Virus record (IMG/VR): IMGVR_UViG_3300049889_000020
Length of the DNA stretch: 64,000 nucleotides
From: a virus
Direction: 5' to 3' (one strand)
The position numbers were made by a program, and so were the translations under genes. Below the pieces are notes generated by a model. The model worked only from the letters and a program-made list of their open reading frames with translations. It did no database searches and was not told the DNA's origin. Below are positions 11,120 to 32,791 of the stretch, one piece after another (the stretch's first letter is position 1; each line of letters opens with the position of its first letter).

Positions 11120-11168
11120 GGTCCGTGTTTCACTGACCCAATGCTCCATGTAAATTGCATATGCATGA

Positions 11169-11195: not shown

Positions 11196-11252
11196 CATGT
11201 CAAGGGGGGCTGTAACTGTGAGCGACCTAAAGATCACGAGAGGTGCACGGCC

Positions 11253-11641: not shown

Positions 11642-11774
11642 TCGACGCTGGCGACCACCACCCGCCAGCATCACCCCTCCTATCGACGCGCCGGGCTCCC
11701 ACTCCCCGGCGCGTCGATGCGTTCCGGGCCTTCCGGCGTGGCTACATTGACCCGTCCGATCTTCGGAGGTGGTT

Positions 11775-13448: not shown

Positions 13449-14754
13449 CGCCCTCCCGGCGTTGGCCGCGCAGGCCGCGATGGTCTCCGAAGCTCCCCCC
13501 GATCCGGAGCCCGGACCGATCCGTTCCGCTCTGGCCGATCACGGTGCGGCCCGCATCGACCGGGCGGTGGCGTTAATGGACGCCGCGATCGGCGGTTACA
13601 ACGATCGCCTCGAAGCGGTTGTCGAGGCCCGCATGCGTGGCCCGAAAGCCCGCAAGGGCACCCGCTTCTGGTCCGATGGGGTGAAATCGGTATCAGGGCG
13701 AGGGGAAGTGGCCTCTTACGGACATAGAACCGAAGTCAAGGCCCTCGACGCGTCCTACGTGCTACCCGAGCGGGTGGTCACTGAGGTCGCCGACGCCGTA
13801 CGTCCGGTGGGGTTGCGGATCGTGGCGGACGCTTCCGCAGCTGTCGCGAAGTCCCTGGGGCGTCCGAACACGGGGCTCGCGGCACTGGACTGGTCAGCGA
13901 TCTCCAGCGCGGTCGACTCGGTAGTGGGGCGGATGCTGGAAGTCAACGAACGCCACGCCGTCGACATCCGCCGGGAGATCCTGAACGCCGACTCCACGGC
14001 GGGGAACCTGTCTGAGGCGATCGACCGGGTCATGGAGGCCACCAAACGCGGCGGCCGATGGCTACTGATCAACGGGCGCACGCTGGCCACAGCGCTGGCT
14101 GGGGATGCAGCGCTGGGGGCGGCGAAAGCCCTGGGCGTCACCCACACTCAGTGGCTGTCGAGGCGTGATGACCGGGTGCGCCACACCCACGTCGAAGCCG
14201 ACGGGCAGATCCGGCCCGTGGGGGAGAAGTTCGCTGTCGGTGAGTTCGGGTTGCGCTTCCCCGCTGACCCGCTGGTGCTGCCGGCCGGGGGCCGCGAAGT
14301 GTTCGGGTGCCGCTGTTCGCTGCTTTTCTCGAGACCGGCCCCCGATAAGGCCCGCGCGGTGGGCCTGGCGCAGCGCGGGACACCGAAGGCGGCGACCCGG
14401 TTACTGCGGGCGGGGATCCCCCGCACCCATGGTCCGCTGGTGGTCAGTGCACCGGAGCTGGGGGAGCCGATGGCGATACCGGAGCTGGCGGTCCCGGCTG
14501 ACGTGGTGGGCTACCGGGTGCTCGGTGGCGAGGTGGCGGTGACACCGGGACAGCAGTTGTCTTGGCCGGGTGCGCTGGCGCTGGCGCTGGCCCCGCCTGT
14601 GGTCGCGGGGGCGGCGGTGCTGGCGGTGACGGTGCCGGCGGGCACGCTGGTAGGCGTCTCGGGTGGGGCGCTGGTGCTCGCGGCGGGCGTGGTGCTGGCG
14701 GTGGCGGCCGTGTCGGCGACTCAGATCGTGGCTACGCCGGTCGCTGCGGCTTAG
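13414..14754 (+). CDS. phage head morphogenesis protein, SPP1 gp7 / Mu F-like minor capsid protein
   Basis: Signature QWLSRRDDRVRHTHVEADGQIRPVGEKF...FGCRCS. Hydrophobic Ala/Val-rich C-terminus. Confidence 0.7.
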   Translation: MSRAGGDPLAADALPALAAQAAMVSEAPPDPEPGPIRSALADHGAARIDRAVALMDAAIGGYNDRLEAVVEARMRGPKARKGTRFWSDGVKSVSGRGEVASYGHRTEVKALDASYVLPERVVTEVADAVRPVGLRIVADASAAVAKSLGRPNTGLAALDWSAISSAVDSVVGRMLEVNERHAVDIRREILNADSTAGNLSEAIDRVMEATKRGGRWLLINGRTLATALAGDAALGAAKALGVTHTQWLSRRDDRVRHTHVEADGQIRPVGEKFAVGEFGLRFPADPLVLPAGGREVFGCRCSLLFSRPAPDKARAVGLAQRGTPKAATRLLRAGIPRTHGPLVVSAPELGEPMAIPELAVPADVVGYRVLGGEVAVTPGQQLSWPGALALALAPPVVAGAAVLAVTVPAGTLVGVSGGALVLAAGVVLAVAAVSATQIVATPVAAA

Positions 14755-14763
14755 GGTGCGCCC

Positions 14764-14931
14764 ATGATCGGACTAATTATCGGCCTGCTGATCCTGTGGG
14801 TCATTCTGGGCATCATCGGCGCGGCGGTGCACGTCGTGGGGTGGCTGCTCTACGTGGCCATCGTGTTGTTCGTCGTCACGGCGATCTGGGGCGCGGTCAC
14901 CCACTCCCGCAGCGGCAGCGGCCGGACCTGA
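14764..14931 (+). CDS. 55-aa membrane protein (below the ORF-track cut-off)
   Basis: MIGLIIGLLILWVILGIIGAAVHVVGWLLYVAIVLFVVTAIWGAVTHSRSGSGRT; good codon bias; followed by a strong hairpin. Confidence 0.5.
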   Translation: MIGLIIGLLILWVILGIIGAAVHVVGWLLYVAIVLFVVTAIWGAVTHSRSGSGRT

Positions 14932-14937
14932 GACGCC

Positions 14938-14976
14938 GCGAAACCCGGCCCGCTTGCTACACGGGCCGGGTTTCGC
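14938..14976. terminator. bidirectional terminator hairpin
   Basis: 15-bp stem GCGAAACCCGGCCCG/CGGGCCGGGTTTCGC with a 9-nt loop, between convergent genes. Confidence 0.7.
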
Positions 14977-15016
14977 ATGGCCGTAGACCGGGGTCCAGAG
15001 TCTGGCCCGATCGACT

Positions 15017-15274
15017 TTACGCCAGGGCGGCGATGGTGGCGCAGATGAACAGGACCATCACGGCGAGGCATACGTAGCCGATGACGAGTCCGGCGGTGGC
15101 GAGGCCCTTGCCCTTCTCTCCGGTGAGCTTGATCTGGTTGTGGGCGATGTGGCCGAGGACGAGCCCCACCGGCCAGCAGAAGAACGCGAAGACCAGCGAC
15201 AGGATCGCCAGGGTGTTGGTGCGCGGGCTGGGGGTGGTGGGTTCGGCGGCTGGGGTGGTGACTGCTGTGGTCAT
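15017..15274 (-). CDS. small membrane protein (DUF4190-like)
   Basis: Thr/Pro-rich N-terminus followed by two hydrophobic helices (LAILSLVFAFFCWPVGLVLG, GLVIGYVCLAVMVLFICATIAALA). Confidence 0.55.
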   Translation of the reverse strand: MTTAVTTPAAEPTTPSPRTNTLAILSLVFAFFCWPVGLVLGHIAHNQIKLTGEKGKGLATAGLVIGYVCLAVMVLFICATIAALA

Positions 15275-15329
15275 GCGGTGCTCGCTTTCGGTTGGGTCGG
15301 AACGCTTACGGCCGGTACATCGCAGAGTT

Positions 15330-15389
15330 GCGGGGCTGCGTTACAGTTGCGGCAATAGCGCAGCCCCGCTACACTCGAAAGTGTTCCGA
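15330..15389 (+). promoter_or_regulatory. inverted repeat GCGGGGCTGCG/CGCAGCCCCGC followed by -10-like TACACT and a degenerate GTGTTCCGA box
   Basis: 11-bp arms at 15330-15340 and 15359-15369. TACACT at 15370-15375. GTGTTCCGA at 15381-15389, lying 25 nt before ATG 15415. Confidence 0.45.
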
Positions 15390-15414
15390 CCGCACCCGAC
15401 AACTGGAGACCTCA

Positions 15415-16407
15415 ATGACCGCAGCACTCGCGACCGCTCCCGCCATCGACGGCCGCATTGACGCCATGGCCACCCTGGGCACCGACGTCCGCCACTCCGG
15501 CTCCGCCCACCAGGCCCTCATCGACGCCGGGATCGCCGGCATGTACGTCCGCAAGGTCCCGGTCCTCTCCGCCAACACGGGCACCCTCGTCGAAGGCCAG
15601 TACTGCCTGGAAAACGCGCTCGGTGAGCCCCTGCACAACATCACCGTCGGGGACGACTTCCAGGTCGTGCAGTTCGAGGACAACGCTGACGCCCTCGACG
15701 CCGTCGCCCGCCAGACCGGGGCCACCATCGCCAACGCCGGCAAGATCGACGTTCGGCACTACGGCATCGGCGGGGCGCGCGCGTTCGTCTCCCTGGAGCT
15801 GCCCGAGCCCATCGTCATCGGCGACGACCGCATGATCGGCTACATCACCGCGTTCATGTCCCACGGGCAGTCCTCGAACCACTTCATTCCCGGTGCGAGG
15901 CGCGCATGGTGCGCCAACCAGCAGTCCCAGATGGTCCGCGAAGGCCGCGACCTGAAGGTCACCATCCGGCACACCTCCTCAGCGCTGGAGCGCACCGCGC
16001 TGGCCGGTGACACCCTGCTGGCCACCGTCGCCGGCATGCGCGACCTGGAAACCGAAGGCCGCGAAATGCTCGCCACGCCCGTCACCGATGACGAGTTCGG
16101 CACGATTATCGACATCATGTACCCGCTCGGTGGGGAGTCCAAGGCCGCACAGACCCGCTACGACAAGCGCGTCGAAGCCCTCCAGGAGCTTTACACCGGT
16201 CCCACCAACGCCAACATCACCGGCACCGCGTGGGGCGCCTACCAGGCCATCAATGAGTACGGCCAGTGGGTGCAGGGCATCCGCAGTGGCGGTGACGACA
16301 ACCTCGACCGGGCCCGCGCCCGCCGGGCACTGACGTCCTCGACGCTGGCCGCCACCCAAGTCAAGGCCTACACCGTGATCCGGGAGATGTACGGACTGGC
16401 CGCCTGA
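15415..16407 (+). CDS. DUF932-like phage/plasmid protein
   Basis: ATG 15415 with GGAGA upstream. The pattern AL.DAG...V.K.P, GG.R.F..LEL, SHG.S, R..C.N, IRHT.S, TAWGAYQAINEY matches my recollection of the DUF932/TIGR03299 family. Confidence 0.55.
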   Translation: MTAALATAPAIDGRIDAMATLGTDVRHSGSAHQALIDAGIAGMYVRKVPVLSANTGTLVEGQYCLENALGEPLHNITVGDDFQVVQFEDNADALDAVARQTGATIANAGKIDVRHYGIGGARAFVSLELPEPIVIGDDRMIGYITAFMSHGQSSNHFIPGARRAWCANQQSQMVREGRDLKVTIRHTSSALERTALAGDTLLATVAGMRDLETEGREMLATPVTDDEFGTIIDIMYPLGGESKAAQTRYDKRVEALQELYTGPTNANITGTAWGAYQAINEYGQWVQGIRSGGDDNLDRARARRALTSSTLAATQVKAYTVIREMYGLAA

Positions 16408-16616
16408 TGCGCTACAAGACGCTCTCAGAGCTGCAAGCCGCTTACGCGTCAGGCGACGATTTGAGCCCAGTGATCCTCGACAATGACACGGTTGACGCCT
16501 ACTCCAACACTGAGGTCAATGATCACGGCGAAGACCTCCAGATCTACCACTCCGACCCGTGGGCGATCCTCCGTGAGGCCCTGACCTTATTGAACATCCC
16601 CTGGGACGGGGCCTAA
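16407..16616 (+). CDS. hypothetical acidic protein
   Basis: ATG overlaps the upstream stop; 69 aa. Confidence 0.5.
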   Translation: MRYKTLSELQAAYASGDDLSPVILDNDTVDAYSNTEVNDHGEDLQIYHSDPWAILREALTLLNIPWDGA

Positions 16617-16712
16617 CCCACAGACTCCCAGGGACCTCCAGAAGCGGGCATCGGGGAAGGATCGCTCACGACTGGCGCAGGCCCAATCGCCGGGTGGGAG
16701 CCGGTGCAGTAA

Positions 16713-16758
16713 GGAACGGTTCCGCTCTCCCTCGTCGGAACAAGAGCGGAACCGTTCC
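16713..16758. repeat. perfect 16-bp inverted repeat GGAACGGTTCCGCTCT / AGAGCGGAACCGTTCC (14-nt spacer)
   Basis: Read directly from the sequence. The right arm contains a CGTTCCGG box (16753-16760). Could be a terminator or an operator. Confidence 0.6.
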
Positions 16759-16839
16759 GGGACGGTCCCCCTGCCTAGTGGCACTGGGCGGGGTGGCCGT
16801 CCCCTCGCCCGTTCCGGCACCCCGCAGACAGGAGACCCC

Positions 16840-17388
16840 GTGTCCGCCATATCTGAATCCGGTGATCGCTACCACCGGATCTCCACTGTCCTGGCCCACT
16901 ATCAGGCCCCTATGTTCATCGTCGCGCTCACCGTCGACGCCGCGCTCGCGCTGACCCATCAGGCCCGCACCCCGGCCGGTTACGTCATCGGTTTCGTCGC
17001 CCTCTTGGCCGTCATGGCGACCATGCTGGCGGAGCTGCGTCACTCCCGATCACCGTGCGAGCGGTGCGCCGCCAAGACCCCCCTGGATCCGCAAGCCGCA
17101 GTGCAGCGCCGCGCCCGGTGGCTACGGTTATTCCACCTCCTCAACAGCGTTCCCGCGCTCACCGTGCTGATCGTGCTGTATGTCACGGGAATCCTCGTGC
17201 TCCCCGCTGACTTCTCCTCCTACCTGGCAGAGGCGCCGCTGTACCTGTTCTGGGCGGTGGCGGCAGCCGCGAACCTCATTCACCGACCGCTGGAGCCGTG
17301 GTGCCCACAGTGCAACTGGGGCGACGGCGGCGACGAGGAAGACGTACCCGCACCGTCACCCGTTCCGGCCGCCACCAACACCCACTAG
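16840..17388 (+). CDS. membrane protein with CxxC...CxxC
   Basis: GTG 16840 with GGAGA upstream. Four hydrophobic helices; CERC and CPQC motifs. Confidence 0.55.
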   Translation: MSAISESGDRYHRISTVLAHYQAPMFIVALTVDAALALTHQARTPAGYVIGFVALLAVMATMLAELRHSRSPCERCAAKTPLDPQAAVQRRARWLRLFHLLNSVPALTVLIVLYVTGILVLPADFSSYLAEAPLYLFWAVAAAANLIHRPLEPWCPQCNWGDGGDEEDVPAPSPVPAATNTH

Positions 17389-17395
17389 GAGCGTC

Positions 17396-17560
17396 ATGAA
17401 GCGTTGGCACATCCTGCCCCGGCGCGTGCGCCGATTCCTTCACACCCACGGGTACTGCAACTGCCCCGCCAACCGCCGACTGCGCGAGCCGTCGCCGCAG
17501 CAACGCCGCCTCGACGCTGTTGAGCGGGCCATCCAGGAGCGTCGCCGTGGCACTTCGTAG
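17396..17560 (+). CDS. small basic protein
   Basis: ATG 17396 with AGGAG upstream; 54 aa. Confidence 0.35.
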   Translation: MKRWHILPRRVRRFLHTHGYCNCPANRRLREPSPQQRRLDAVERAIQERRRGTS

Positions 17561-17939
17561 ATCGAAGCTCAAGCGCAGCAGCCAATTCCAGCGCATCGAA
17601 GACCTACCCTCGTGGCTCCGCGACAAGATCGAAGCCGATCGGACGCTGTGGCACGACGGCAAGTCCAAGACGTGCATGCACAACCCGACCCCCCGAAACG
17701 GCATGCCCGTGGTGATGTCCGCCGCGAAGTGCGGGCTCGTCGTTTGCGGCCTGTGCACCGACCTGGTGACCGCACCCAGTTCCCGCCGCGTCGCGAACCT
17801 CACCTGCGACGGATGCGGTCACGTCGTCGAGGACACCGCTACCGATCACCTCGTCGGGGCGATGGCGAAGCTCCAGGGTCTGACGTACGTCTTCGCCGTG
17901 TGCTCACTGTGCCGGGGTCGGATGTCGCAGGCCCGTTAA
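17547..17939 (+). CDS. Cys-rich (zinc-binding-like) protein
   Basis: GTG 17547 with AGGAG 7 nt upstream. Multiple CxxC motifs (CGLC, CDGC, CSLC). Confidence 0.45.
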   Translation: MALRRSKLKRSSQFQRIEDLPSWLRDKIEADRTLWHDGKSKTCMHNPTPRNGMPVVMSAAKCGLVVCGLCTDLVTAPSSRRVANLTCDGCGHVVEDTATDHLVGAMAKLQGLTYVFAVCSLCRGRMSQAR

Positions 17940-17945
17940 CGCGAA

Positions 17946-17969
17946 CAGCCCGCCATTGCTGGCGGGCTG
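17946..17969 (+). terminator. hairpin after 17547..17939
   Basis: 9-bp stem CAGCCCGCC/GGCGGGCTG with a 6-nt loop. Confidence 0.45.
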
Positions 17970-18120
17970 TCCCGGTTCCGGCCTCACCCGAGGGTTATCC
18001 CACAGAGGCATAGCCTCAATGTGGGTCCCGAGATCCGCAAGGCCGAGTGTAACAGGGCAGTGCGGGCGATTCCAGATCATGCGGCGTGCCCCAGCTCCCG
18101 TCAGCGCCGTGGCTGACACC

Positions 18121-18390
18121 ATGCGCTACGTGCAGCTCACTATCGGTGCCCGCGTGCACTACCGCAGCCACGGAAGCCCCATCCTGATCGACGGGTCGCA
18201 GGTCCACGCGCCCAAATGCCGTCCTGCTGATGTGGTCGAGATCATGGGCGGCGAGTTGTGCACCCTGTTCGTGATTAACCCGTCGGGCATTTTCTTTGAC
18301 GAGTGCCGCCACGATGAGTCCCGCTGGCCCAAAGAGCCCCCCGGTACTGGCGGCACCTGGCACTGGCCGTGTGACGTGGTTGATGGCTGA
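18121..18390 (+). CDS. hypothetical protein
   Basis: Strong codon bias begins at ATG 18121. The upstream part of the track ORF is weaker. Confidence 0.5.
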   Translation: MRYVQLTIGARVHYRSHGSPILIDGSQVHAPKCRPADVVEIMGGELCTLFVINPSGIFFDECRHDESRWPKEPPGTGGTWHWPCDVVDG

Positions 18391-20257
18391 CGAGGCGCCG
18401 AAGACCTACAGCGGGGGCATGCTCGCACTGATCCCCGACAATCCCGGTGAGCTGGTTGTTGAGGGCGGTGACCCTGCCGAGCAGATTCACCTCACGCTGC
18501 TCTACCTGGGCGATGACGTGGCGCAGTGGCCGGCGGGGCAAGCCCAGCATCTGAAAGAGCTGATCACGGCGAGCGGGCCGGGTCTGGACGCGGTCACCGC
18601 CCGAATCATGGGCCACGCCGTGCTGAACCCCGACGGGGACGCCGGCAGTGACAAAGAACCGTGCGCGGTCTACCTGGTGGGCGACACGCCCGACCTTGAC
18701 CCGCTGCGCAAATGGGCCACCTGGGTCATGGCCACGGGTGAGGATTACCCGGATCTACCCGACCAGCACACCCCTGTCCTGTGGCATGTGACGGCCGGCT
18801 ACGGGATCGGTATCGACGCGTTGAGCTACATCGGCCCGGTGCGCTTCGCCACGCTGCGTCTCGCGCTGGCTGGTGACGTGCTCGATGTGCCGCTGGGAGA
18901 TCAGGAGGCGGGCATGCCCGGACCACAGGTCAAGTCGATCACGTTCACGCCACCGAAGGCGGTGCGCGACGCGGCGGAGGGTCTGGACGGCCCGTACGCG
19001 CAGGAGGTGATCGAGGGCAAGGCCCTGGATATGTCGGGGCTGATCTGGGTCGCGGGGGCGTGCGGGCCGGCGGGATTGTCGTGGGCTGGGGACATGATGG
19101 GCCGCGCGGAGGTCAAGGCCGCTGTGCGGGAGATGAACATGGGCCGGGTGGTCAACGACGGCCCGCGCCTGGAGTCCATTGATGATCTGCACCGGGCGAT
19201 CGAGGAGCACGGGAACTGCCCGGCTGAGGATCGGCCGGCACGGGTGCGGGTATTACGGGGCCACGCGAAGCGCCTGGGGGCTAACGCGCACACCCTGTCC
19301 CGCATCGACACCCTGGAAGGCGCGAGCACCGACGGCAGCGGTACGAAGTCTGCACCTGAGGATGAGGTTGAGACGAAGTCGTGGGCGCCCGGTAATGCCG
19401 CGCCCGCGCCGTTGCCGCACCTGGCCGCGCTGCACGCCGCGATCCGGGCGCACCCGAAGGTCCGCGACAGCCACAAGGCCAAGCACAAGGAACACCTCGC
19501 GGCCGAGGCGATCCGGTTGGGCGCCGAGCCCCACGTGCACGCCCAGATCGGCTACCTAGAGCCGCACTCGTTCCATGGGAAGTCCCTGGAGGACGGGGTC
19601 GAGGTCAAGGTCACCTCACCGTCGCCGGGGGCGTCGCGGTTGCGTAACTTCTGGGCACGCACCGCTAAGGGCCGGGCGAAGTGGAAGCCGGGCATTCCCG
19701 GTGATTTCAAGCGCCTGCGCCGGCACCTGGCGAAATACGTGCACAATCCGCGCATCCTGAATGGTTTGACCGCGAACATCCACAAGATCGCCACGGGTGA
19801 GTGGCCCGGCAAGAACGCGCACACCGCGAAAGCCAAGCCCGGCAAGCCGATCACTTATGGCGTGAAGTCTCTGGTCGATTGGGAGTGGGATGCCACGGAG
19901 ATCAAGAGTCTGGCTGCGGCCGAGCCGGACCTAGCGGAGATGTTCGCCGGCATCGACGACTGGGGGCAGATCTTCGATGAGCCGTGGGTGGCGGGTTACC
20001 TCGCGGAGCTGGCCGAAGCCCAGGGCGACACCGATGAGGACGCCGAGCCGGCCAGTGAGGTGGAGCGCACCGCCGCGCTGGCCGCGTTGGGCTCCAAGCT
20101 CGTCGCCGACCCCGACCCCGTGGTGGTCGAGGAGGCCGAGCCGGAGCCAGATGCGGACCCGGTCGACGAAGCGCCGTCGGGCGACCCGGACTCCGGCGCT
20201 GATGACGGTGGCTGGGGCGCGCTGTTCGAGGCGGCATCGGCGGAGGCCGTGACGTGA
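18383..20257 (+). CDS. 2H-phosphoesterase (LigT-like) domain fused to a long repeat-containing, acidic-tailed extension
   Basis: Two H-x-T-x motifs in typical context: IHLTLLYLG (His codon 18488-18490) and LWHVTAGYG (His codon 18785-18787). ATG 18383 overlaps the upstream stop region. Confidence 0.65.
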   Translation: MADEAPKTYSGGMLALIPDNPGELVVEGGDPAEQIHLTLLYLGDDVAQWPAGQAQHLKELITASGPGLDAVTARIMGHAVLNPDGDAGSDKEPCAVYLVGDTPDLDPLRKWATWVMATGEDYPDLPDQHTPVLWHVTAGYGIGIDALSYIGPVRFATLRLALAGDVLDVPLGDQEAGMPGPQVKSITFTPPKAVRDAAEGLDGPYAQEVIEGKALDMSGLIWVAGACGPAGLSWAGDMMGRAEVKAAVREMNMGRVVNDGPRLESIDDLHRAIEEHGNCPAEDRPARVRVLRGHAKRLGANAHTLSRIDTLEGASTDGSGTKSAPEDEVETKSWAPGNAAPAPLPHLAALHAAIRAHPKVRDSHKAKHKEHLAAEAIRLGAEPHVHAQIGYLEPHSFHGKSLEDGVEVKVTSPSPGASRLRNFWARTAKGRAKWKPGIPGDFKRLRRHLAKYVHNPRILNGLTANIHKIATGEWPGKNAHTAKAKPGKPITYGVKSLVDWEWDATEIKSLAAAEPDLAEMFAGIDDWGQIFDEPWVAGYLAELAEAQGDTDEDAEPASEVERTAALAALGSKLVADPDPVVVEEAEPEPDADPVDEAPSGDPDSGADDGGWGALFEAASAEAVT

Positions 20258-20900
20258 CCACAACGTTCCCGGATGACGTCGAGACTCCGGAGGACATGGA
20301 CGCGCTGGAATGGAAGGCGCTGCCCACGGCGGAGATGACCTCCCCGCTGACCGGGGTGATCGGTCACGACGACGCCGACGGCACGATCACGGCGCTGGTC
20401 GCGGTGTCCGGGGTGGTCGATGAGGTTGGTGACGTCATCGTGCCAGGGTCGCTGGCTACGGCGATCAAGCGGCTGAAGCCCAAGGGCGTGATGTCACACA
20501 ACTGGTCGGCGAAGGTGTCGCGACTGGTGTGGTCGAAGGAACTCATGCCGGGTGACCCGCAGCTGCCCAGGACGACCCCGCAGGGCGAGCCGTGGCCGGC
20601 CAACGCGGGCGGTCTGCTGATCAAAGCGAAGTACAACCTGGATAAAGAGATCGGCCGCGACGCTTACGCGGACGCCAAGTTCTACGGGCCGGAGGAATGC
20701 TTCTCCATTGGGTACAAAGTGCGCCCCGGTGGCTATCGGATGCGCAGCGGCAAACGTTACCTACACGATTACGATCTGTATGAGTGGTCCCAGGTATTGC
20801 ACGGTGCACATAAGCTCGCGCACTTGACGGGGGTGAAATCCCTTTCCGAGACTGTCGCCGACGCATGGTATGATGACCCTCGTTCCGGTGTCACCGACGA
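20254..20900 (+). other. prohead (capsid maturation) protease domain, HK97 / S78-U35-like
   Basis: GTITALVAVSGVVDEVGDVIVPGSLATAIKRLKPKGVMSHNW ... FSIGYKV ... YEWSQVLHGAH matches the family pattern as I recall it. Occupies the protease slot between portal/MuF and capsid. Confidence 0.65.
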
Positions 20901-23900
20901 GGGGACCACTGTGCTTGATGGCGTGGAGTACAAGGGCATCCGTGTCGTGCGCGACGCCGAGTTCTGGGGCATGCCCCTGGGCACCCCCATCAAGGCCGGC
21001 ATGCGCCCCCGCAGCGGCCAGACACCCACCACCGCGCAGATCGCGGCCACCACCGCACCCGGCAGCGCGGACGCCAAGCCTGAGGTCCCCGGCAAGCCCG
21101 GCGTCCCCGGTGCTGCCGGCGTACCTGGCGCGCCCGGTGACCCCGCCCTGGCCCCGCTCGCCCCACCCGGCCCCGGTGTCCCCAAAGCACTGGCCGCGCT
21201 GCACCAGCGCTACCAGGAACTCAATGAGCAAGTCCAGCAGACCCCGGCGTTCGGTGACTCCAGCCTCGCCGAGAACTCCCTGGCGATGCTCGCCCAGTTC
21301 GCCGCCCCCGGTGCCGATGTCCACGCGTCCACCGACGGGCAGCTCGCCGCCGTCCACGGGCCCGCCGGCTGGACAATCGTCGACACCGCCAACGCGGGCA
21401 GCGGCCTATCCAACGCCGCCCAGATCCCCCCCGACGCGCCCCCCGACCAGATCGACGCCGCTCTCGAACACCTCACCCAGATCGGCATCCCCTGGGATGA
21501 CATCGAAGCGCGTAAGAAGCGGTGGGCCAACGCGAAGCAGAAGACGGCCGACCAGCAGGCCGTCCGTGACGTCCTGTCTCAGATCACCCCGTTCTCCGCC
21601 CCCGCACCCGTCGGCGAGGACGACGCGGCCGGTGCCCGTGATGACGCCGAGTCGGCGATCGCCACCCAAGACCGTGATGGGCTCGCTGAAGCCCTCACGC
21701 GGATGGGCCTGCCGCCCGATCAGGACCCCCGTGAGATGGCCGCCAGTCTGCTGGTGCTGCCATCGGAGGTCGCCGCCAAACGTCTCGACGCGGTCGCCGC
21801 GCAAGCCGTGATCCCCCAGGTAGGTGCTGCCCCCGATGGCGGGCAGCAAAAGCCGGGCGTCGCAGGCCCGGCTCCGACGGTTCCACCGGGGGCAGCACCG
21901 CACGCTAACCCGCCCGCGCCCGTTAAGCCGAACCCGGTAGGCACCGCCCACGCTGACGGCACCACCACCGTGACGGCCGGTGCGAACACCATCCCCGGCG
22001 GCCACGACCTGCCCCAGACGCCGCCCGCTGCCCCGGAAGCGCCGGCCGCGCCCGCTGATGACCGCAAGTACGGCACCCCGGTGCTGGTCAACACCTACGG
22101 GGTGAAGCCCGGTAGCTACCCCACAGTGAAAGCCAGTGAGGTCCGTACGGGTGACCACGTCATGCTGTCGCGCCACGATGGCGGCAAGGTCACCCAGGCC
22201 AAGCCGGGCCGCACCGGGCAAACACTGATCACCTACGACGACGGCACGGGTGGCGGCACCCAAACCCGTGGGGTTAAGAACGGTTCCGCGCTGCCGCTGG
22301 TGTCCGCCGGCACGCCGGCTGTCGACCCGAGCAAGCCCCAGGCCGCGCCCGAGCACGAGTACAAGCCCACCGGCAACCACAACGCCCCCGAGAAGCTGAC
22401 CGACGCGCAGCTCGCGGCGGAGTCTGAGGCAGCGCACAAGCGGCACATGGCGGCCCGGTCGAACAATCTGCCCAAGAACTCCCTGGAGTACAGCGACTCG
22501 AAGCTCGCCGCTACCCGCTTCGGTGACGAGGCACGCCGCCGGGCCGCCGCGACCGTCGCGGAGTCGACACCGGCCCCCGAGGTCGACGCTCACCCGCTGG
22601 TCACCCCGGCCGCCCCCGATGACGCCGCTCTGCTCGCCCAACTGTCCGGGCATGTCACCGCGCCGCAGTTGTCCGCCGCGCTGGCGACCATCGCCCGCGA
22701 CCAGAGCGACCCGGCGCTCGCCCACGCGGCGACCATCGCCCGTGGCAGTCTGGATTCCCCGTCGGCGAAGACGCCGGAGAAGCTGGCCGCTGAGCTGATC
22801 CGGGTTAAGAACCAGATGGCGCAGGCGCCTGACTCGGCTACTTTGCACGCCACTCTGGACGGCCTGGAGCGCATCGTTAAGGCGCTGAAGGCCGATAACT
22901 CGAAGATCCAGGTGGGCGGCAAGGCCCGCGCGGGCTCCCCGCAGCGCCAACTCCTGCACGAGAACCTGGCCGAGTACACCCGCCACGTTCGGGGCGCGCT
23001 GCACGCTGACGAGAACCCCGACAAGCCCGCTGACCAGCCTCCGGCGACCGCACCGGAGGGCACCGGAGGGCCGGAGGCCAAGCCTGACCCGCTGCGGCCC
23101 GCGCCGGGGCAGGTCAACTACACCGCGATTCAGAAGCGCAGTCACCCCGCCTATCGGGACGCGGCACTGCGCCAGCTTGATGACGCTGAGCTTGCGTCGG
23201 TCAAGCGGGAAGCCGCCCGACGCGGTGGGCACGGCGCCAACATGGCCGACAGTGTCCACACGGAGGAGATCCGTCGTCGCATCACTCCCGACGAGCTGCG
23301 CAAGCGCGCCGACAAGACGGGCGGTGGCGCGTCCGACGGTGAAGCCAAGCGGATGCGGGACCGCGCCGACGATTACGAGCGTCGCGACGCCGCCGGCATC
23401 GGCCGCCATGACTTCGCGGCCCTGCCGTTGGGCGAGCACCCGAAGACACCGGAGTCCACTGGCGGGGAAGTGCCCGAAGGCACCCCGGACGGCACCGTGC
23501 CCGTGCCCCCGGAGGTCGCCGACTCCGCTCACCGCATCCGGGGTGAGGCCCTGGGCCTCACGGACGGCCCCGATGGGCAGGAGGAGGTCACCCAGGAGGT
23601 CGCCGACCGCCAGGAGCGGGTGGCGGCACTGCTGGAGACCGGGGAGACCGGCCTGGCCGACCAGACCGACCCGCAGCTGCACGAAACCCGCAAAGACCTC
23701 ACCGACGAGCTGGCGCTTCAGGACGAGCTGCACCGTCGCGACACCGAACGCAAGCGGGAAGCGGCGGTCAAGAAGGCGGAGGCCGGGGCGTCTTCCGTGT
23801 CGGCGACGGACGCCCCGGCCGGGCCGGAAGATACCGGCCCGAAAGTCCGTCCCGGTGTCGCGGGTGCCGCTGAGGATCTGGGCGACGCCCTGAACGCGAC

Positions 23901-26900
23901 CCCGCGCGATGACGCTGCGGTCGCGGTCGCCGCTGAACGCTTCGCGAAGATGATGCGCCGCCACGGGGAGTCCACGGCGTTCGACGACATCCGCACCGCC
24001 ATCGGTGACGGTGACGTTCACACCGCGATCGCTTCCGGGAAGCTCAAGGCCGGCATGCTGTTCACCGCCGCCGGGGCGTTGCGTGAACAGCGTCGGGTGA
24101 AGCGCAATGAGGGCGCGAAGGCCCGCCGGCTCGCGAAGCGCCTGGACCGTGACCGGATCAAGTCCCTGATCGGTTCAGTGGATGCGGAGTTGCGTCGCCG
24201 TAAGGGCGCGACCGAAGATGGCAAGCGCGGCGCGGCGAACGTGGCCATTGGTCCGGTTTCGAGCACCGCCGCGCCGTCCAAGACCGCCCCGGCCGCCGAG
24301 CCCGCACCGCACCCGCAGCAGGCCCGTCGCGACGAACGCGACGCCCGCCTAGCCGCCGACGGCAACCGCGTTCAGCGCGCCCAGGAGCACATGCGGGAAG
24401 CCCGCACCGCCGCCGATGGCGGTGATTTCGAGGGCGCATTCGCTCACCTCGATCAGGCGCAGGAACTGAATCCGGAGCGCCAGCGACTCTGGGATAAAGC
24501 GCGTGGAATCGTCACCGGGCAGCGCGACCGCAGTAAGTCCACCGCTACACCAGCGGAGCCCGATCAGGCTCGTCGTGCTGAGTTCGATAAGGCCGTCGCT
24601 GAGGACTTCCCCCCCGACGCCTCTGTGCGACTGTTTCAAGACTGGGATCGGGACCACTCCCGCCCTGACCTGGCCAGCGATGTCACCGCTGTTCGCCGAG
24701 CCCGCAATGGTTACGTCACTGTGCGGGAGTCCAAGGGCACCACAGTTGACGTGTTCCCACGGCAGCTAGAGCTGGTCGGCAGCGCCCAGGGTGCACAATC
24801 GCCCCAGAGAGAGGGTGATGATCGTGGGAGTTCTGGCGAGACAAACCGAAGCGTGGTACCGGACGTACCAGCCGCAGACGTACGCGGGGATCAAGGACAA
24901 GCAGACGTTCTTCGCCGATCTGGAGGAGCAAGCCCGCCAGCAGATACAGCAGACAGCCGACCAGCTGGCCGGGCCGGATCCGGAGGGGGAGACCTACCAG
25001 GAGAAGCTGGGGCGCCTGAACGCCGCGCAGCAAGCGGCGACAGAGAAGGTGATGCGGGAGTTCCTGATGAGCCCGCCGCCCCCGAACGCCCCGGACAACG
25101 CGCTGCCACTGCCGGCGACACCGGACCCGTCGATGGTGCCGACGCAGGACCCGATAGATCAGGCGCTGACTCAAGCGCTGGCGGACTTCCAGGAGGCGGC
25201 CGACGAGCTGAGGCGTCAGGAGAGGGAGAGCGCGAAGGCGGCGATGCCGACACTGCCGGCGCGCCCAGCGCACCTGAGTTAACCGAAGCCGACCAGCCCA
25301 GCGCCGACATTGGGCAGGTCGATGCGATCCCCGACACCGGGGAGTCCTTTCACCCCACCGGGCTGGACGACTTCGCTCCGGCCGGTAAGAAGTCGAAGCT
25401 CGAAGCGAACCTCGCGGCGCTGCGCACGTTGCGCCAGTTGCAAGACGACCGCCGCAGCGCCACCCCCGAAGAGCAGGCCGTGCTCGCTCGCTGGGCCGGT
25501 TGGGGTGGACTGCCGGAAGTCTTCGACGACAACAAACCCGAGTACGCGAAACAACGGGAGGAGCTGCGTGGACTGCTGTCGGACTCTGAATGGGCAGAGG
25601 CTCGCCGCAATACCCTCAACGCCCACTACACCGACCCCCGCGTGGTGCAATCGCTGTGGAAGGCAATGGGAGATCTGGGGTTCGACGGTGGTCGCGTCCT
25701 CGAACCCGGCTCCGGATCCGGAACGTTCATCGGATTCGCGCCCGGCAACGCCGACATGGTCGGAGTCGAGTTGGACTCGACGACAGCTGCGATCTCTCGT
25801 GCCCTCTACCCGCACGCGACGATAAGAAACGAGTCCTACGCGGCCACCCGGCTACCGGCCGGCTCGTTCGACGCGACGATCGGCAACGTCCCCTTCGGTG
25901 ACTTCGCCCTGACCGACCGGGTGCACAACCCCAATCGCAAGATGTCGATCCACAACCATTTCATCGCCAAGGCCCTGGCCCAAACCAAACCCGGCGGGCT
26001 AGTCACCCTGCTCACGTCGCGCTACACCCTGGACTCGAAAGACTCCGCCGCGCGCAAGAAGCTGGCCGAGCTGGGCGACCTGGTTGGTGCGGTGCGCCTG
26101 CCTACGGGGTCGCACTCCCGGATGTCGGGCACCGATGTCATTGAGGACGCCCTGATCTTCCGGCGCCGGGAGCCCGACGCGGCACCGTTGACGTCGCAGG
26201 ACTGGGTGAACTCCCACGATCAGGACATCAACGGTCACACGGTCACCATCAACGACTACTTCACCGCCCATCCCGAGCAAGTGCTGGGTGAGGTCACCGC
26301 AGAGGCCGGCCAGTACGGCAGCGGGTCACTGATCGTCAAGGGCGACAAGACGATGGCGGACCTGCCGGCCGCGCTGGACCGGATCGTGGAGTCGGCGAAA
26401 GCCGACGGCATCACCGCGTCGCCCCGCATGGAAGGCCTCACGGCGTTCACCACCCCCGACGATGACCGCCACGAAGGCCACATCGCTGCCCACGAAGACG
26501 GCACATTCACCCAAGCCGAACAGGGCACCGCCGTGCCCCTGGACGTGCCCGCCAAGCACGCTGACGCGGTGCGCGGGCTGATCGGCCTACGCGACACCCT
26601 GCGGTCCCTGCTGGCCGCTGAAGCGGCTTCGGTGTCGGACTCCCCGGACATCAAGGCGCTGCGCAAGCAACTCAACGACCGCTACGACGCGTTCGTGAAA
26701 AAGTACGGCCCGGTCAACCACTACACGCTGACCAAATCTGGGGCGCGCAAGCCCGACCCGGCCCGCAACCTGTTCCGCAAAGACCCCATGTCGGCGATCG
26801 TCCGCGCCCTGGGCGCTTACGACGCCGAGACCGGCACCGAGGCGAAGACCAGCATCTTCCGCAAGCGCGCCAGCACCCCACGGGAGATCCCCACCCACGC

Positions 26901-29900
26901 CGACAGTCCCGAGGACGCCGTCGCGCTGTCCATGGACACCTACGGCCGGGTGGACCTCCCCGCGATCGCCACCATGCTGGGCACCGATGAGGCCGGCGCA
27001 CGGGAACGCCTGGGCGATCTGGTCTTCGAGCAGCCGCCACTGTCAGCGGCCGACGCCGACGCCGCGTTCCGCGCCCACATCGAAGAGGCGTCCGGGATTG
27101 CCAGCGACGGCGGGCGTTTCGGTGGGATCTCAGCGGGCCTGAACCTCGACGACGCCCCGGACACCTCCGTGCTGGACTCCGTCGGGGAGGCGGTGCGCTC
27201 CGAAGGTTCCCTGGAGCCGGCCGCCGCGTATTTGTCCGGCAACGTGCGCCGCAAGCTCGCCGCCGCCCGCGAGGCCGCCAAGCGCGACGACCGCTTCGCC
27301 AAGAACGTCACCGCGCTGGAAGCGGTGATCCCCCCGGACCTGGGTGTCGACGAGGTCGACGGGCGTCTGGGCGCGGCGTGGATCCCCGCCGATGACGTTC
27401 GGGCGTTCATGGTGGAGCTGCTTTCCGACGGTGATGACCCGTACAACTCCATCAAGGTCTCCACGTCAGGTGGCGGCATCTGGACCGTGGAAGGCGGCCA
27501 GTGGGGCACTAAGGCCACTGAGGAGTGGGGCACTGACCGGCTTTCCGCCGGGGAGATCATCCAGTCCCTGCTGGAGCAGCGATCCATTCAGGTCCGCGAC
27601 ACCATCAAAGACGCCGACGGTAAGTCGAAGTCCTACCCGAACTTAGAAGCGACCACGGCCGCCCAGGCCAAGGCTGAGGAGTTGTCGGACCGGTTCTCCG
27701 AGTGGCTGTGGGAGGACTCCGATCGCACTCGGCGCCTGCTGGCCGCCTACAACAACCAGTTCAACGCGATCCGGTTGCGTTCCTACGACGACATGCCACG
27801 GGTGTTCCCCGGCATGGCCGACAGCTTCGACCCTTTCGATCACCAGGTGGGCGCGGTCAACCGCATGGTGTCCGAGCCGTGCGCGTTGCTCGCCCACGTT
27901 GTCGGCGCCGGCAAGACCGCCGAGATGGCGATGGGCACCGCTGAGCTGAAGCGCCTGGGTCTGGCGAACAAGCCCGCCATTGTCATCCCCAACCACATGC
28001 TGGAGCAGTTCTCCAGCGAATACATCCAAATCTACCCCAACGCTAAAATCTTGGCCGCCGGTACCGATGACCTGACCGGGGATAAGCGCCGGGAGTTCGT
28101 CGCCCGCGCGGCCACGGGTGAGTGGGATGCCATTATCCTCACTCAAAAGGCCATGGAAGCCATTCCGATGTCGCGCCCGGCGATGCAAGCCTACATCGAC
28201 CGGGAAATGGCGACGATGAAAGCGCAGCTCGCGTCTGCGCAGGCATCGGCGGCGGGTGACTCCGCTAAAGAGAAGACCGTTAAGAAAATGGAGAACTCGC
28301 TGATCAAGGCTGAGGAGGCCCTGAAGGCGAAGCTGGACAAGGTCAAAGACGCCGGGGTGAGCTGGGAGGAGACCGGCATCGACTACCTGTGTGTTGATGA
28401 GGCGCATATGTACTCCAACCTGCGCACCATCTCCAACATCCAGGGCGCGGGGGCGACCGGGTCGGACATGGCGTCGGACCTGCACATGAAAATGGAGCAC
28501 CTGCGGGCGAACAATAAGTCGGGCCGGGTGGGGACGTTCGCCACGGGCACCCCGATCCGCAACACGGTCACCCAGGCTTACATCATGCAGCGCTACCTCG
28601 ACCCTGAGACGTTGCGCCAGGCCGGTATTCACTCATTCGACCAGTGGGCGGCGACGTTCGGCAAGACTGTTGATGAAATGGAACTCAAGCCCGAGGGCAC
28701 CGGGTTCCGTCAGACCACTCGTTTCGCGAAGTTCCGCAACGTCCCTGAGTTGCTCAGATTGTTCCACCTGTTCGCCGATGTGAAGATGGCCGATGACCTG
28801 AACCTGAAGACCCCGAACCTGACCACGGGTGGGGTGCAGAACGTCATCGTGCCGGCGTCGCCGGAGCTGTCCGCCTATGTCCAGGAGCTGGGCCAGCGCG
28901 CCGAAGATGTCCGCAACGGCAAAGTCAAGCCCGAAGAAGACAACATGCTCAAGATCTCCGGTGATGGCCGCAAGGCCGCCCTGAGCATGGCGTTGGTGGG
29001 GCAGAAGCATCAGCCGGGCAAGATCGAACAAGCGGCCGACAACATCTACAAGATCTGGGATGAGAACAAAGACCGGCCCGTGCCGAAAGACATCAACGAC
29101 CCCGCTGGTGGCGACGACCCGCCGCCCGGTGGCATGCAGATCGTGTTCTGCGACATGGGCACCCCCGGCGGTGCCGGCATGAACGCGTATCAGAAGTTGC
29201 GTGACGAGCTGGCCGCCCGTGGCATGGACCCGAAGTCGATCCGGTTCATGCACGAAGCCAAAAACGATCGGGAAAAGGCGGAGCTGTTCGCCGCCGCCCG
29301 CAACGGTCAGGTCTCCGTGCTCGTGGGGTCGACGGAAAAAATGGGTGTCGGCACCAACGTGCAGCGCCGCGCCGTCGCGCTGCACCACCTCGACGCCCCG
29401 TGGCGCCCCAGCGATGTGGAGCAGCGCGACGGCCGGATCATGCGCCAGGGCAACACCAACGCGGAGGTAGCGATCTTCCGCTACGTCACTGAGGGCAGTT
29501 TTGATGCCTATATGTGGCAGACGCTGGAGCGCAAAAAGAAGTTCATCGACCAGATCATGCGCGGCAAGATGGGCGACGTCCGGGAGATCGAAGACGTCGG
29601 CGACACCGCCCTGTCCTACGCCGAAGTCAAGGCCCTAGCCACCGGGAACCCGCTGCTCATGGACAAGGCGAAAGTCGACGTCACGGTCGGCAAGCTCACC
29701 CGCCTGGAGCGCCAGCACGCCAGGACCCAAACCAACCTGCGCCGCGACGTGGTCTCCTACGGGGCCAACGCGGAACAAGCCGACGCTGACGCCGCCGCCT
29801 ACAACGCCGCGATCGCCAAGCGCACCGACATCAGCGGTGACAAGTACTCCATCAACGTCGCCGGCATTACCGCCCGGACCCGCGCCGACGGGGCGACCCT

Positions 29901-31252: not shown

Positions 31253-31435
31253 GGGGAGACCTTCACTGTAGCTGACATGGCGGCGTGTCGCTGCCGCCAT
31301 TTGCGTCACCAGTGATCTACTGCGCGCAACGCGCCTGGTACTGACCGGTGCGAGTCCCCGAGCACGATGGGGGTTCGCTTCGGCCTACCCGCTTCCCGTG
31401 CTCGAACACACACCGAGCGCAAGGGAGACGCGGCA

Positions 31436-32791
31436 GTGACCGCACCTACTCTCGACCGCCACGACAAAGACCTCATTGATCGTGGCAAGGTCGAAGTGAA
31501 GTCCATCAACGCACAAATGGACGAGATCACCAAGTCAGGTTGGCTCGACGGCGAAGGCAACATGCACGTCAAGCCCGAAGCCCTCACCGAGTTCAAGGCC
31601 CTGCTGGCCAAGGCTGAGGAGACTCACGGCATCGTCACCGCCCTGGAGCGCAAGGGCCTCCTGGATGAGTGGCTGGACGCCCCTGCCGGCACCCCGGTGG
31701 CGATGGGTGGAGCCCCGGCCGGTATCGGCATGACGGCGATGCCCGAGTACAAGTCATTGGGGCAGCGCTTCGTCGAGTCGGATGCTTTCAAGAGCCACCG
31801 TGACTCCGGTTTCATGGACAAGGCGTTCGCTATCGAGGGCGAGGAGATCACCTCCCCCAACGGCGGCGTGCAGTACAAGGATGTCCACTCCGGCAGCATC
31901 GGCACCGTTGTGCACCCCGGTTTCGGCACGGTGCAGCGGGCCCCGATGGTGAGCGCACCGATGCTCACCTGGCGGGTGCGTGACCTGTTCCCGCAGATGA
32001 ACACCAACTCGGTGATGATTGAGTTCATCGAGGAGCTTGGGTTCGTCGATGCGGGCGACAACGCTGCGGCGATGATTCCCGAGCGCGACGGTCTGAGTCC
32101 GGAGAACTTCGGTCTGAAGCCGAAGTCCCAGATCCACTTCAACATCAAGACCACGCCGATCCGGACTCTCGCCCACTGGGTGCCCGCGTCGCGCAACGTG
32201 CTTGATGACGAGCCGCAGTTGCGGGGAATCATCGACACCCGGCTGCTTTACGGCCTGCGGTTGGTCGAAGACCAGCAGCTGCTTCTGGGTGACGGCACGG
32301 GACAGAACCTGCTGGGCATCTTCAACACCCCAGGTATCCAGTTGTTCCCCTCTGGCGGCTATCACGCACCGACTAACGAGACCTACGTCGATGCCATTCG
32401 CCGGGGCGCCACTCGCGTCATGTTGGCACAGTATGACCCGACCGGCGTGGTTGTGCACCCTTACGACTGGGAGCGCATGGAATTGACTAAGGACACCCAG
32501 GGCCGCTATTTGGTCGCGGGGTCGGTCACTTCCGGTGCGGAGAAGCGGCTGTGGCAGATGCCCGTTGTCGCTACTCCGGCGTGCCCTGAGGGCACCGCGC
32601 TGATCGGCGCTTTCGGGTTGGGCGCGCAGGTTTTCGACCGCATGCAGTCCAACATCCGCACCGCTGACCAGCATGCGGACTTCTTTATTCGTAACGCCAT
32701 CGTGGTCCTGGCCGAAGAGCGGCTGGGGTTGGCCGTCTACCGTCCCGCTGCCATGGTCAAGGTCAACCTGGCCGCCGCGATCGCAGCCTGA
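31436..32791 (+). CDS. major capsid protein, HK97 fold with N-terminal delta-like coiled domain
   Basis: GTG 31436 with GGGAGA 7 nt upstream (the track starts at ATG 31367). The stretch VRDLFPQMNTNSVMIEFIEE...PERDGLSPENFGLKPKS...LRLVEDQQLLLGDGTGQNLLGIFNTPGIQ is typical of HK97-family capsids. Confidence 0.85.
   Translation: MTAPTLDRHDKDLIDRGKVEVKSINAQMDEITKSGWLDGEGNMHVKPEALTEFKALLAKAEETHGIVTALERKGLLDEWLDAPAGTPVAMGGAPAGIGMTAMPEYKSLGQRFVESDAFKSHRDSGFMDKAFAIEGEEITSPNGGVQYKDVHSGSIGTVVHPGFGTVQRAPMVSAPMLTWRVRDLFPQMNTNSVMIEFIEELGFVDAGDNAAAMIPERDGLSPENFGLKPKSQIHFNIKTTPIRTLAHWVPASRNVLDDEPQLRGIIDTRLLYGLRLVEDQQLLLGDGTGQNLLGIFNTPGIQLFPSGGYHAPTNETYVDAIRRGATRVMLAQYDPTGVVVHPYDWERMELTKDTQGRYLVAGSVTSGAEKRLWQMPVVATPACPEGTALIGAFGLGAQVFDRMQSNIRTADQHADFFIRNAIVVLAEERLGLAVYRPAAMVKVNLAAAIAA

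Follow-up and report, generated by a model that had tools for sequence, protein, structure and literature searches.

We analyzed a 64,000-nucleotide (nt) stretch of viral DNA (IMG/VR virus record IMGVR_UViG_3300049889_000020), referred to here as the window, which contains a giant open reading frame (ORF) whose product ends in a DarB-like methylase-helicase. Judging from sequence comparisons, it is highly probable that tnpV, a small gene of the TnpV family lying inside this ORF, is a separately initiated nested gene, that the giant ORF is read through tnpV as a linker, and that the nesting is ancestral and selected. The same strand would then encode two proteins in different frames at 24818-25282. 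tnpV would be translated from its own Shine-Dalgarno (SD) sequence and start within the giant ORF. The giant ORF would be translated straight through in the -1 frame of tnpV, giving a disordered linker rich in G/A/D/P/R that joins an N-terminal module to the methylase-helicase, which has no start codon of its own.

Coding frames in the window

We assessed the coding signature of each frame by the G+C content at the third codon position (GC3), calculated over 180 nt at a time. GC3 of the giant frame was 0.77-0.90 almost throughout and dropped to 0.40-0.53 from 24754 to ~25200. Over the same stretch, position 1 of the giant frame, which is position 3 of the +1 frame, climbed to 0.82-0.90, and GC3 in the tnpV frame was ~0.88 (range 0.85-0.90). 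These data are in agreement with an initial annotation made from the sequence alone, which had noted the loss of GC3 bias in the giant frame at about 24805-25283 and the coding signature in the +1 frame. It had also proposed a frame-specific codon test; by that test, GC3 sits in the tnpV frame over tnpV and in the giant frame elsewhere.

The tnpV frame is closed upstream by TAG 24767-24769 and ends at TAA 25280-25282. Its in-frame start candidates are GTG 24815, ATG 24818, and GTG 24824, with GAGAGGG before the ATG (Table 1). The giant-frame translation of 24790-25329 was of low complexity (19% G, 18% A, 12% D, 10% P, and 9% R) and free of stops, including the part within 24818-25282 that is the -1 frame of tnpV. 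In the giant frame, ATG, GTG, and TTG are all absent from GTG 24853 to TTG 25429. Each of these features, namely the boundaries of the embedded frame, the low-complexity yet open giant frame, and the absence of start codons, had been pointed out in the initial annotation and was observed where it had been placed.

Identity of TnpV

Homology searches with TnpV from the window returned sequences with 95, 79, and 52% identity, followed by many proteins of ~130 aa named “TnpV protein” (NCBI and UniRef; Kocuria and Citricoccus). Homologues with the NCBI name TnpV had E values of 1e-10 to 1e-14. By tblastn, 20 actinobacterial plasmids were matched, often at a coding sequence (CDS) annotated as TnpV. 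The resemblance to TnpV-like proteins beside methylase-helicases, which the initial annotation had suggested, was borne out by the names of the homologues and by plasmid loci that carry both genes. The N-terminal 85 residues are well conserved across the family, with P19, F32, L35, AG.D, E58, K63, and GRL.A invariant, and these invariant residues are retained in the phage lineage. The Pfam model PF14198 (TnpV) was matched weakly by 12 of 18 aligned relatives (best E 5e-4). A search with a profile of the TnpV family gave 1,141 clusters at E <= 0.001. Because the 150 best matches are all 76-276 aa long, none of these relatives is a domain of a large protein.

The AlphaFold 2 (AF2) model of TnpV is helical, as expected from the credible helical protein read from the embedded frame, with helices at residues 5-17, 19-24, 28-51, 60-83, and 112-141. 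Its mean predicted local distance difference test score (pLDDT) is moderate (64.6), with residues 10-85 at 72-84. A Foldseek search of the model against the PDB gave nothing below E = 1, and the fold yields no function. Together, these sequence data indicate that tnpV is a real gene, probably of the TnpV family, for a small stand-alone helical protein (154 aa in the window; 104-175 codons across loci) of mobile elements, found in plasmids, integrated elements, and phages. A tblastn search with TnpV against the INPHARED phages gave zero matches, Firmicutes TnpV genes were out of reach of tblastn with the Kocuria TnpV, and a near-identity DNA search with 23800-26300 against plasmids and phages returned nothing.

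Conservation of both frames in the phage lineage

Six related contigs from different samples were available for comparison: four short metagenomic Logan/ENA contigs (L004-L007) and two IMG/VR viral contigs (L086 and L087). Their TnpV sequences are 95, 95, 79, and 52% (L004-L007) and 90% (L086/L087) identical to that of the window. The giant frame is stop-free over tnpV in all six. It is open across the entire contig in L004-L007, and the open frame of L086/L087 extends over 3,580 codons (5623..16365 in L086, ~3,563 aa from the first start at 5674). An upstream motif, “...AHLDQAQ.LNPER..LWDKARG”, is kept in the giant frame in all six contigs, and the N-terminus of the methyltransferase (MTase), “ESFHPTGLDDFAPAGKK”, lies in the same frame in every contig that reaches that far (all but L007). 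Down to 52% identity, the tnpV ORF has remained intact from its start to its stop, both in the window and in each of the six contigs. The nested layout is not an assembly error, as six independent contigs share it.

Substitutions between close pairs of tnpV sequences were distributed over codon positions 1/2/3 as 3/4/16, 6/10/20, and 5/10/25. Because they fall mainly on the third position of tnpV, TnpV appears to be under purifying selection in the phage lineage too. Distant pairs gave nearly flat profiles (24/25/33 and 54/55/60). The initial annotation had recommended aligning related elements to see which frame is conserved; the alignment gave the same two-frame layout in six independent contigs, with a position-3 excess in the tnpV frame.

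DNA alignment with L086, L004, and L006 further revealed an in-frame insertion specific to the window, directly before the linker (Table 1). Its length is an exact multiple of three, and the giant frame is the sole stop-free frame within it. The insertion contains TAG 24767-24769 and has a lower GC3 (0.62-0.68).

Nesting across Actinomycetota

A search with TnpV peptide patterns, using one genome per species, returned 78 loci. The positions of tnpV and of the MTase N-terminus were located in each locus by tblastn, and both could be placed in 80 loci, which form 21 clusters at 60% TnpV identity. The genera include Arthrobacter, Paenarthrobacter, Kocuria, Micromonospora, Streptomyces, Leifsonia, Jiangella, and Pseudonocardia, along with metagenome-assembled genomes (MAGs) of Solirubrobacterales and others.

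We observed that the MTase-helicase frame is the -1 frame of tnpV, without a stop anywhere in tnpV, in 78 of the 80 loci. In these 78, the nearest upstream stop of the helicase frame is always 5' of the tnpV start: it lies 79-331 nt before that start in ordinary plasmids, whereas the Micromonospora loci (-1276 to -1405 nt) and the window (-4612 nt) have it further away. Across loci, tnpV and the helicase frame overlap by 350-520 nt. Homology to the MTase begins 3-51 nt past the tnpV stop in most loci, overlaps the stop in L019, L030, and L040, and starts ~90-140 nt downstream in the loci from Micromonospora and Kribbella, with a greater distance again in L024 and L079; loci in which it starts further downstream include L001, L015, L020, and L021. 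There is mostly no canonical start codon near the tnpV stop in the family loci. Together with the lack of a start at 24853-25429 in the window, this upholds the earlier proposal that the MTase-helicase module is unable to initiate alone.

Nesting of tnpV in the helicase gene as an ancestral, selected state in plasmids and integrated elements of Actinomycetota best explains these sequence data. The initial annotation had overlooked two points, namely that the whole family shares this arrangement and that the window represents the head module of a phage. As a side observation, two contigs labeled “Vibrio cholerae strain 35D” (L044, WNZI01000021.1; L070, WNZI01000040.1) carry Arthrobacter-type tnpV/helicase loci. 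The N-terminal peptide of the helicase frame (described below) and the feature spacing of L044 are identical to those of Arthrobacter sp. NPDC092385 (L045), and the assembly labeled Vibrio cholerae is probably contaminated.

Selection on the host frame

We estimated how often the giant frame would be open by chance in a simulation in which the synonymous codons of TnpV were re-drawn from local codon usage and the giant frame was scored as open or closed. It stayed open in 7.7% of simulations for the window and in 3.9-6.7% for L004, L006, and L007. As a control, the equivalent frame in the helicase genes of 66 related loci contained 2.2 stops per 130 codons, and 20% of 130-codon windows were open in it (empirical P(open) 0.13-0.20).

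The sole route to a host-frame stop is a tnpV codon ending in T followed by an AA/AG/GA codon. Among the cluster representatives, T at tnpV position 3 was found before such codons in 0 of 820 cases versus 99 of 1911 in safe contexts (Fisher p = 3.3e-16). The helicase genes, used as a control, lacked this avoidance (222/3919 versus 913/14946). A natural control is provided by L080, a MAG of an uncultured Arthrobacter, in which tnpV (3260-3664) is intact and the methylase-helicase has been lost; the former helicase frame has three stops there, and the N-terminal peptide is degraded. These sequence data indicate that the giant frame is held open by selection, beyond chance.

Divergence at four-fold degenerate sites was ~30% lower in tnpV than in the helicase gene next to it, whichever divergence bin was considered, and yet the TnpV protein diverges faster than the helicase. 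Reduced divergence of this kind would be the expected effect of a second reading frame.

Probable upstream start of the helicase frame

In the plasmid loci, the helicase-frame ORF opens at an ATG or GTG preceded by an SD sequence, 76-190 nt 5' of tnpV. It begins with a conserved basic peptide of ~25 aa containing GQLSF, termed the N-peptide here, in short form M-A-x-R-K-K-Q-I-D-G-Q-L-S-F-E-A-L-W and in full: M-A-[GR]-R-K-[KR]-x-Q-[IV]-[DE]-G-Q-[LA]-S-[FLI]-[DE]-A-[LF]-[WL]-...-P-E-E-[DV]-R-[DN]. Over 51 distinct DNA versions, its entropy at codon positions 1/2/3 was 1.12/0.92/1.61, and the codons of the invariant G, Q, and D/E residues change at the wobble position alone. The final N-peptide codons (ccGGAGGAag...) also serve as the tnpV SD.

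In three plasmid clades, we observed that the most variable codon phase switches from the helicase wobble position 5' of tnpV to the tnpV wobble position inside tnpV. No phase dominates in the variable TnpV tail, and the helicase wobble returns directly past the tnpV stop. From this conservation we infer that the helicase frame is translated from 5' of tnpV. No X XXY YYZ slippery heptamer was conserved in tnpV of the 21 cluster representatives, and none was present in that of the window; an Rfam scan of 24000-26000 gave no credible element and no frameshift element.

The N-peptide, located ~20-70 nt upstream of tnpV starts (e.g. L002 1129-1204), resembles the sliding-clamp-binding motif QLSLF/QLxLxL, a likeness that we regard as only a lead. 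The translation of the window insertion (“...RRARNGYVTV...FPRQLELVG...”) is loosely like the plasmid-type peptide (“RRSGYNDxQLSFEALW”); this likeness of “RRARNGY...RQLELVG” is only suggestive, and we do not claim kinship. We also considered “EQLLLDFGG” in the Micromonospora linker as an N-peptide relic and rejected it, as it is merely the -1 reading of the conserved TnpV sequence “PDPxxFFxxLGEQ”.

The giant protein and its genomic context

Features of the window are listed in Table 1. The N-terminal region of the giant protein is peculiar to the phage lineage. Its residues 36-205 match phrog_80 (E 5.9e-13), the single match obtained with the N-terminal 1,500 aa; searches against Pfam, NCBIfam, and PDB sequences gave nothing usable, and a homology search with the C-terminal 514 aa of the upstream part found one remote database homologue only. 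The C-terminal motif of this region, QEHMREAR..ADGGDFEGAFAHLDQAQELNPERQRLWDKARG, is kept in the giant frame in L004-L007 and L086.

Table 1. Coordinates of the giant ORF, the nested gene, and neighboring features in the window
Feature	Position	Strand	Basis
Giant ORF, 3644 aa	20254-31188	+	ORF list
N-terminal region peculiar to the phage lineage, ~1,430 aa	20254-24537	+	phrog_80 match, motif conservation
Window-specific in-frame insertion versus L086, L004, L006; 252 nt (84 codons)	24538-24789	+	DNA alignment
Putative giant-frame linker, ~180 aa, rich in G/A/D/P/R/S/E	24790-25329	+	Composition, open frame, avoidance of T at tnpV position 3
SD-like GAGAGGG before the tnpV start	24809-24815	+	Sequence; block invariant in L086, L004, L006
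tnpV, 154-codon TnpV-family gene, +1 frame of the giant ORF	24818-25282	+	GC3, homologues, substitutions, AF2 model
Start of the conserved MTase module (PDTGESFHPTGLDDFAPAGKKSKLEANLAALR...)	25330-25899	+	tblastn homology, motifs
Helicase core	28396-29451	+	DEAH 28396-28407; Helicase_C ~29230-29451; QRDGR 29422-29436
Portal	11769-13448		
MuF-like	13414-14754		
Major capsid protein	31367-32791		

Homology to the relatives and to DarB-like phage proteins begins at residues 1-19 of the stretch from 25330 (tblastn). MTase motif I (VLEPGSGSGTF) is found at 25696-25728 and motif IV (GNVPFG) at 25882-25899. The C-terminal 1,950 aa match Pfam Helicase_C above the cut-off and ResIII, SNF2, and Eco57I weakly, and NCBIfam gave partial DrmD/SNF2-like matches on the helicase part. 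N6-adenine MTase motifs are thus followed by a superfamily 2 (SF2)/SNF2 helicase within one polypeptide, and this part is 34-37% identical over ~570 aa to phage proteins with the RefSeq name “DarB-like antirestriction”. By sequence, the MTase-helicase part is a DarB-like enzyme of the polyvalent-protein type. The archetype of the methylase-helicase dyad of polyvalent proteins is the P1 virion protein DarB (Iyer et al. 2017, PMC5512222).

The window is the structural (head) region of a phage or prophage. The giant ORF sits between the portal/MuF genes and the major capsid gene, and genes for sheath, tape measure, lysozyme/NlpC, and endolysin lie 3' of it. The phage N-terminal region would carry the enzyme into the procapsid, from which it would be injected with the DNA and protect against restriction, as P1 DarB does, and TnpV would be a partner or regulator of the enzyme. 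From the genomic context, we propose that the N-terminal position carries a delivery or recruitment function, which in the phage would be procapsid incorporation.

Upstream of the giant ORF, the stop of a 653-aa ORF (18296-20257) overlaps the start of the giant ORF (GTGA 20254-20257). The N-terminus of the 653-aa product contains two H-x-T motifs (IHLTLL and WHVTAG) typical of 2H phosphoesterases and matches phrog_2659/phrog_18402. This product probably represents a further injected effector, with probable translational coupling to the giant ORF. In the major capsid protein, ~250 residues precede the Phage_capsid domain (match residues 252-467); this extra N-terminal part may be a scaffolding or delta domain.

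Across the family, domains have accreted at the ORF position 5' of the nested tnpV, which is occupied by the 25-aa peptide in ordinary plasmids. In Micromonospora plasmids (L001, L020, and L021), a DnaG primase core (PF08275) is fused there, in one ORF with the methylase-helicase; in M. parastrephiae (L015), the upstream reading frame has been lost via a stop or indel. The Streptomyces sp. MBT27 “plasmid” NZ_CP070374 (L089, record 4659-23422) has 865 aa at the N-terminal position, after a portal gene. In this 130-kb circular replicon, which may be a phage-plasmid, a CDS for a 5,355-aa “helicase-related protein” holds a nested, divergent tnpV of 104 codons.

Alternative explanations

The initial annotation had offered three possibilities for the embedded frame. 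An overprinted small gene in a disordered linker, the reading that we prefer, is supported by the tnpV homologues, the stop avoidance, the phase switching, and the presence of its own start and stop. Three ancestral genes that lost their stops fit only in part: the nesting itself is old and family-wide, and what is particular to the phage lineage is solely the fusion of the ~1,430-aa upstream region. The remaining possibility, that the giant protein includes TnpV as an in-frame domain via +1 and then -1 shifts, either programmed or arising from sequencing errors, accords with the giant-frame coding sequence found on either side of the embedded frame, and we assign it a next to negligible probability. 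The frame structure is identical in six independent contigs and in finished plasmids, conserved slippery sites are missing, tnpV comes with an SD, ATG, and stop of its own, and its 150 best relatives are small stand-alone proteins (76-276 aa). In addition, the selected openness of the giant frame speaks against paired shifts, under which stop avoidance would be superfluous. Programmed -1 frameshifting, with translation starting at tnpV and slipping near its end, would yield a TnpV-methylase-helicase fusion as the sole or an additional route to the enzyme. It would suit the helicase frame being the exact -1 frame of tnpV in 78 of 80 loci, with MTase homology mostly beginning no more than ~50 nt from the tnpV stop, where a start codon is lacking. 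We nevertheless find it very unlikely, considering that neither a conserved heptamer (21 representatives) nor an Rfam frameshift element was found, that a short overlap would do, yet the frame is open over all of tnpV and beyond, and that the helicase frame opens with a conserved peptide under protein-level selection.

GC-rich DNA is often stop-free in the wobble-starting frame, and the giant frame could be open by chance, with the upstream protein, TnpV, and the helicase made separately and the helicase starting at a non-canonical codon or by reinitiation past the tnpV stop. Such codons are present in the giant frame (ATT 25309, ATC 25327, and CTG 25363), ~20% of the 130-codon control windows were open, and in Kocuria and A. 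agilis, TnpV and the helicase are annotated as two genes by NCBI's Prokaryotic Genome Annotation Pipeline (PGAP). However, the frame is open in every clade (0/820 risky T positions, p = 3e-16), openness was lost with the helicase in L080, the PGAP helicase starts lie at least 87 nt inside conserved homology, and the helicase frame encodes the conserved N-terminal peptide. Because the upstream gene lacks a stop, ribosomes translating it must read on. These results make a chance opening exceedingly unlikely. Finally, the tnpV frame could be a decaying, unexpressed relic in the phage lineage, captured with a plasmid-type helicase gene, in which case only the giant protein would matter. TnpV does evolve fast in this lineage (79 and 52% identity, with the near-flat 24/25/33 and 54/55/60 profiles), the SD spacing to ATG 24818 is short, and the INPHARED phages lack TnpV. 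We consider a relic improbable, given an ORF that remains intact at identities as low as 52% (the window, L004-L007, and L086/L087), the position-3 excess in close pairs, the retained GC3 of 0.85-0.90, and the preserved invariant family residues.

Several points weigh against the preferred reading of a translated gene nested in a translated linker. The SD-like GAGAGGG is only 2 nt ahead of ATG 24818, and because of this spacing the exact tnpV start is uncertain by two codons, with GTG 24824 as the alternative. The TnpV of the window itself matches neither PF14198 (E <= 0.1) nor any NCBIfam model. The frame rule does not hold in two MAG loci (L009 and L012); comparison with a sister locus explains each case by a shift of one base, and we attribute these exceptions, without proof, to indels. 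The loci share ancestry, with 21 clusters below 60% identity, and the p-values overstate independence because the loci are related by descent. Stronger codon bias could partly account for the lower four-fold divergence of tnpV. Translation of both frames was deduced from conservation, and the proposed capsid packaging and antirestriction role from gene position and the names of homologues. The label of phrog_80, “head maturation protease”, receives no backing from Pfam, and we did not adopt it for the N-terminal region.

Discussion

The two-frame layout accounts for systematic annotation errors at these loci. In Kocuria rosea and Arthrobacter agilis, PGAP called TnpV and began the helicase past it, at least 87 nt (29 conserved codons) inside the homology. 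In Micromonospora and Streptomyces, it called one long “helicase” (2,502 or 5,355 aa) that swallows tnpV, and TnpV was omitted. The 2006 annotation of pTC2 placed the helicase start at the N-peptide ATG and likewise omitted TnpV.

A nested gene of 104-175 codons, maintained by selection in no fewer than 21 diverged clades of mobile elements from Actinomycetota, would be a rare case. It suggests a fusion route by which the alternative frame of a neighboring gene can be taken into a large ORF as an inter-domain linker. It also connects the TnpV family, itself unexplained, with antirestriction enzymes of the DarB type and so provides a testable hypothesis for both. More speculatively, the nesting could be a working device, a combined proposal that we put forward as possible and rather doubtful as a whole. 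Hundreds of plasmids and integrated elements of Actinomycetota, along with some phages, would have both frames of a 350-520-nt stretch translated. The -1 frame would be an obligatory disordered tether linking a delivery or recruitment module (the GQLSF peptide, a primase, or the phage head-module region) to the DarB-like enzyme, and ribosomes that pass the tnpV SD and ATG in the helicase frame would set the ratio of TnpV to the enzyme, with TnpV as its obligate partner. If true, few same-strand overlaps known from prokaryotes would be as long or as widely conserved.

To our knowledge, prokaryotes are regarded as having hardly any long overlaps on the same strand. A preprint abstract describes co-directional overlaps over 60 bp as nonexistent except for some instances (10.1101/724807). 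Out-of-frame nesting and polyvalent DarB-like proteins are each already known; we did not find their combination with TnpV described. In the literature that could be searched, we found no account of TnpV nested in such ORFs or of a link between TnpV and a methylase-helicase, and the words TnpV, overlapping, frameshift, and linker are absent from the text of Iyer et al. 2017 (PMC5512222).

The likeness to P1 DarB and the polyvalent proteins (PMC5512222) lies in the fusion of an N6-adenine MTase with an SF2/SNF2 helicase, in the variable extra domains, and in the encoding within phage late/head modules or plasmid transfer regions. Unlike for P1 DarB, the function here is deduced from sequence, at ~35% identity to DarB-like phage proteins. 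TnpV of Tn4451 has been “postulated to be involved in excision” via its similarity to lambda Xis (PMC3158075). As in Tn4451/Tn4453 (PF14198), TnpV here is a small helical mobile-element protein, often adjoining a serine recombinase gene. The helicase N-peptide and tnpV are immediately preceded by a gene for a serine “recombinase family protein” in the Kocuria and A. agilis plasmids (L003 8218-8931 and L088 6214-6813), an adjacency that echoes the TnpX-TnpV pairing of Tn4451; the window has no recombinase gene upstream of tnpV. The differences are that the PF14198 link is weak here and that nesting in a helicase gene is not described for Tn4451.

Programmed -1 frameshift pairs, such as dnaX, orfA/orfB of IS3, and the tail chaperones G/GT, likewise have a downstream ORF in the -1 frame of the upstream one, without its own start. 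Here, in contrast, there is no slippery heptamer, and the overlap spans the whole upstream gene and extends 5' of it, with its own conserved start and peptide. Other cases of out-of-frame nested genes are known, among them those of phiX174. In lambda, Rz1 is wholly embedded in the +1 frame of Rz, and both products are thought to act in one process. The Rz/Rz1 pair shares with tnpV the complete same-strand, out-of-frame nesting of a small gene with its own start in a mobile element. The nested gene there is a lineage-specific partner, whereas tnpV belongs to an old, widely conserved family; the host ORF here would use the overlap just as a low-complexity linker, over 350-520 nt and phylum-wide in plasmids and phages, and translation of both frames is in our case argued from conservation. 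In Bacillus subtilis, comS, a regulatory gene of 46 codons, lies out of frame within a catalytic domain of srfAB and is similarly a small gene nested in a very large multidomain gene, with which it is co-transcribed; tnpV differs in its length of 104-175 codons and in its location in an inter-domain linker, and TnpV is not known to have a regulatory role. Compared with these known nested genes, the arrangement described here appears unusual in that the nested gene is the older and conserved one, that the overlap of 350-520 nt would serve as a linker, and that it extends through the mobile elements of a whole phylum.

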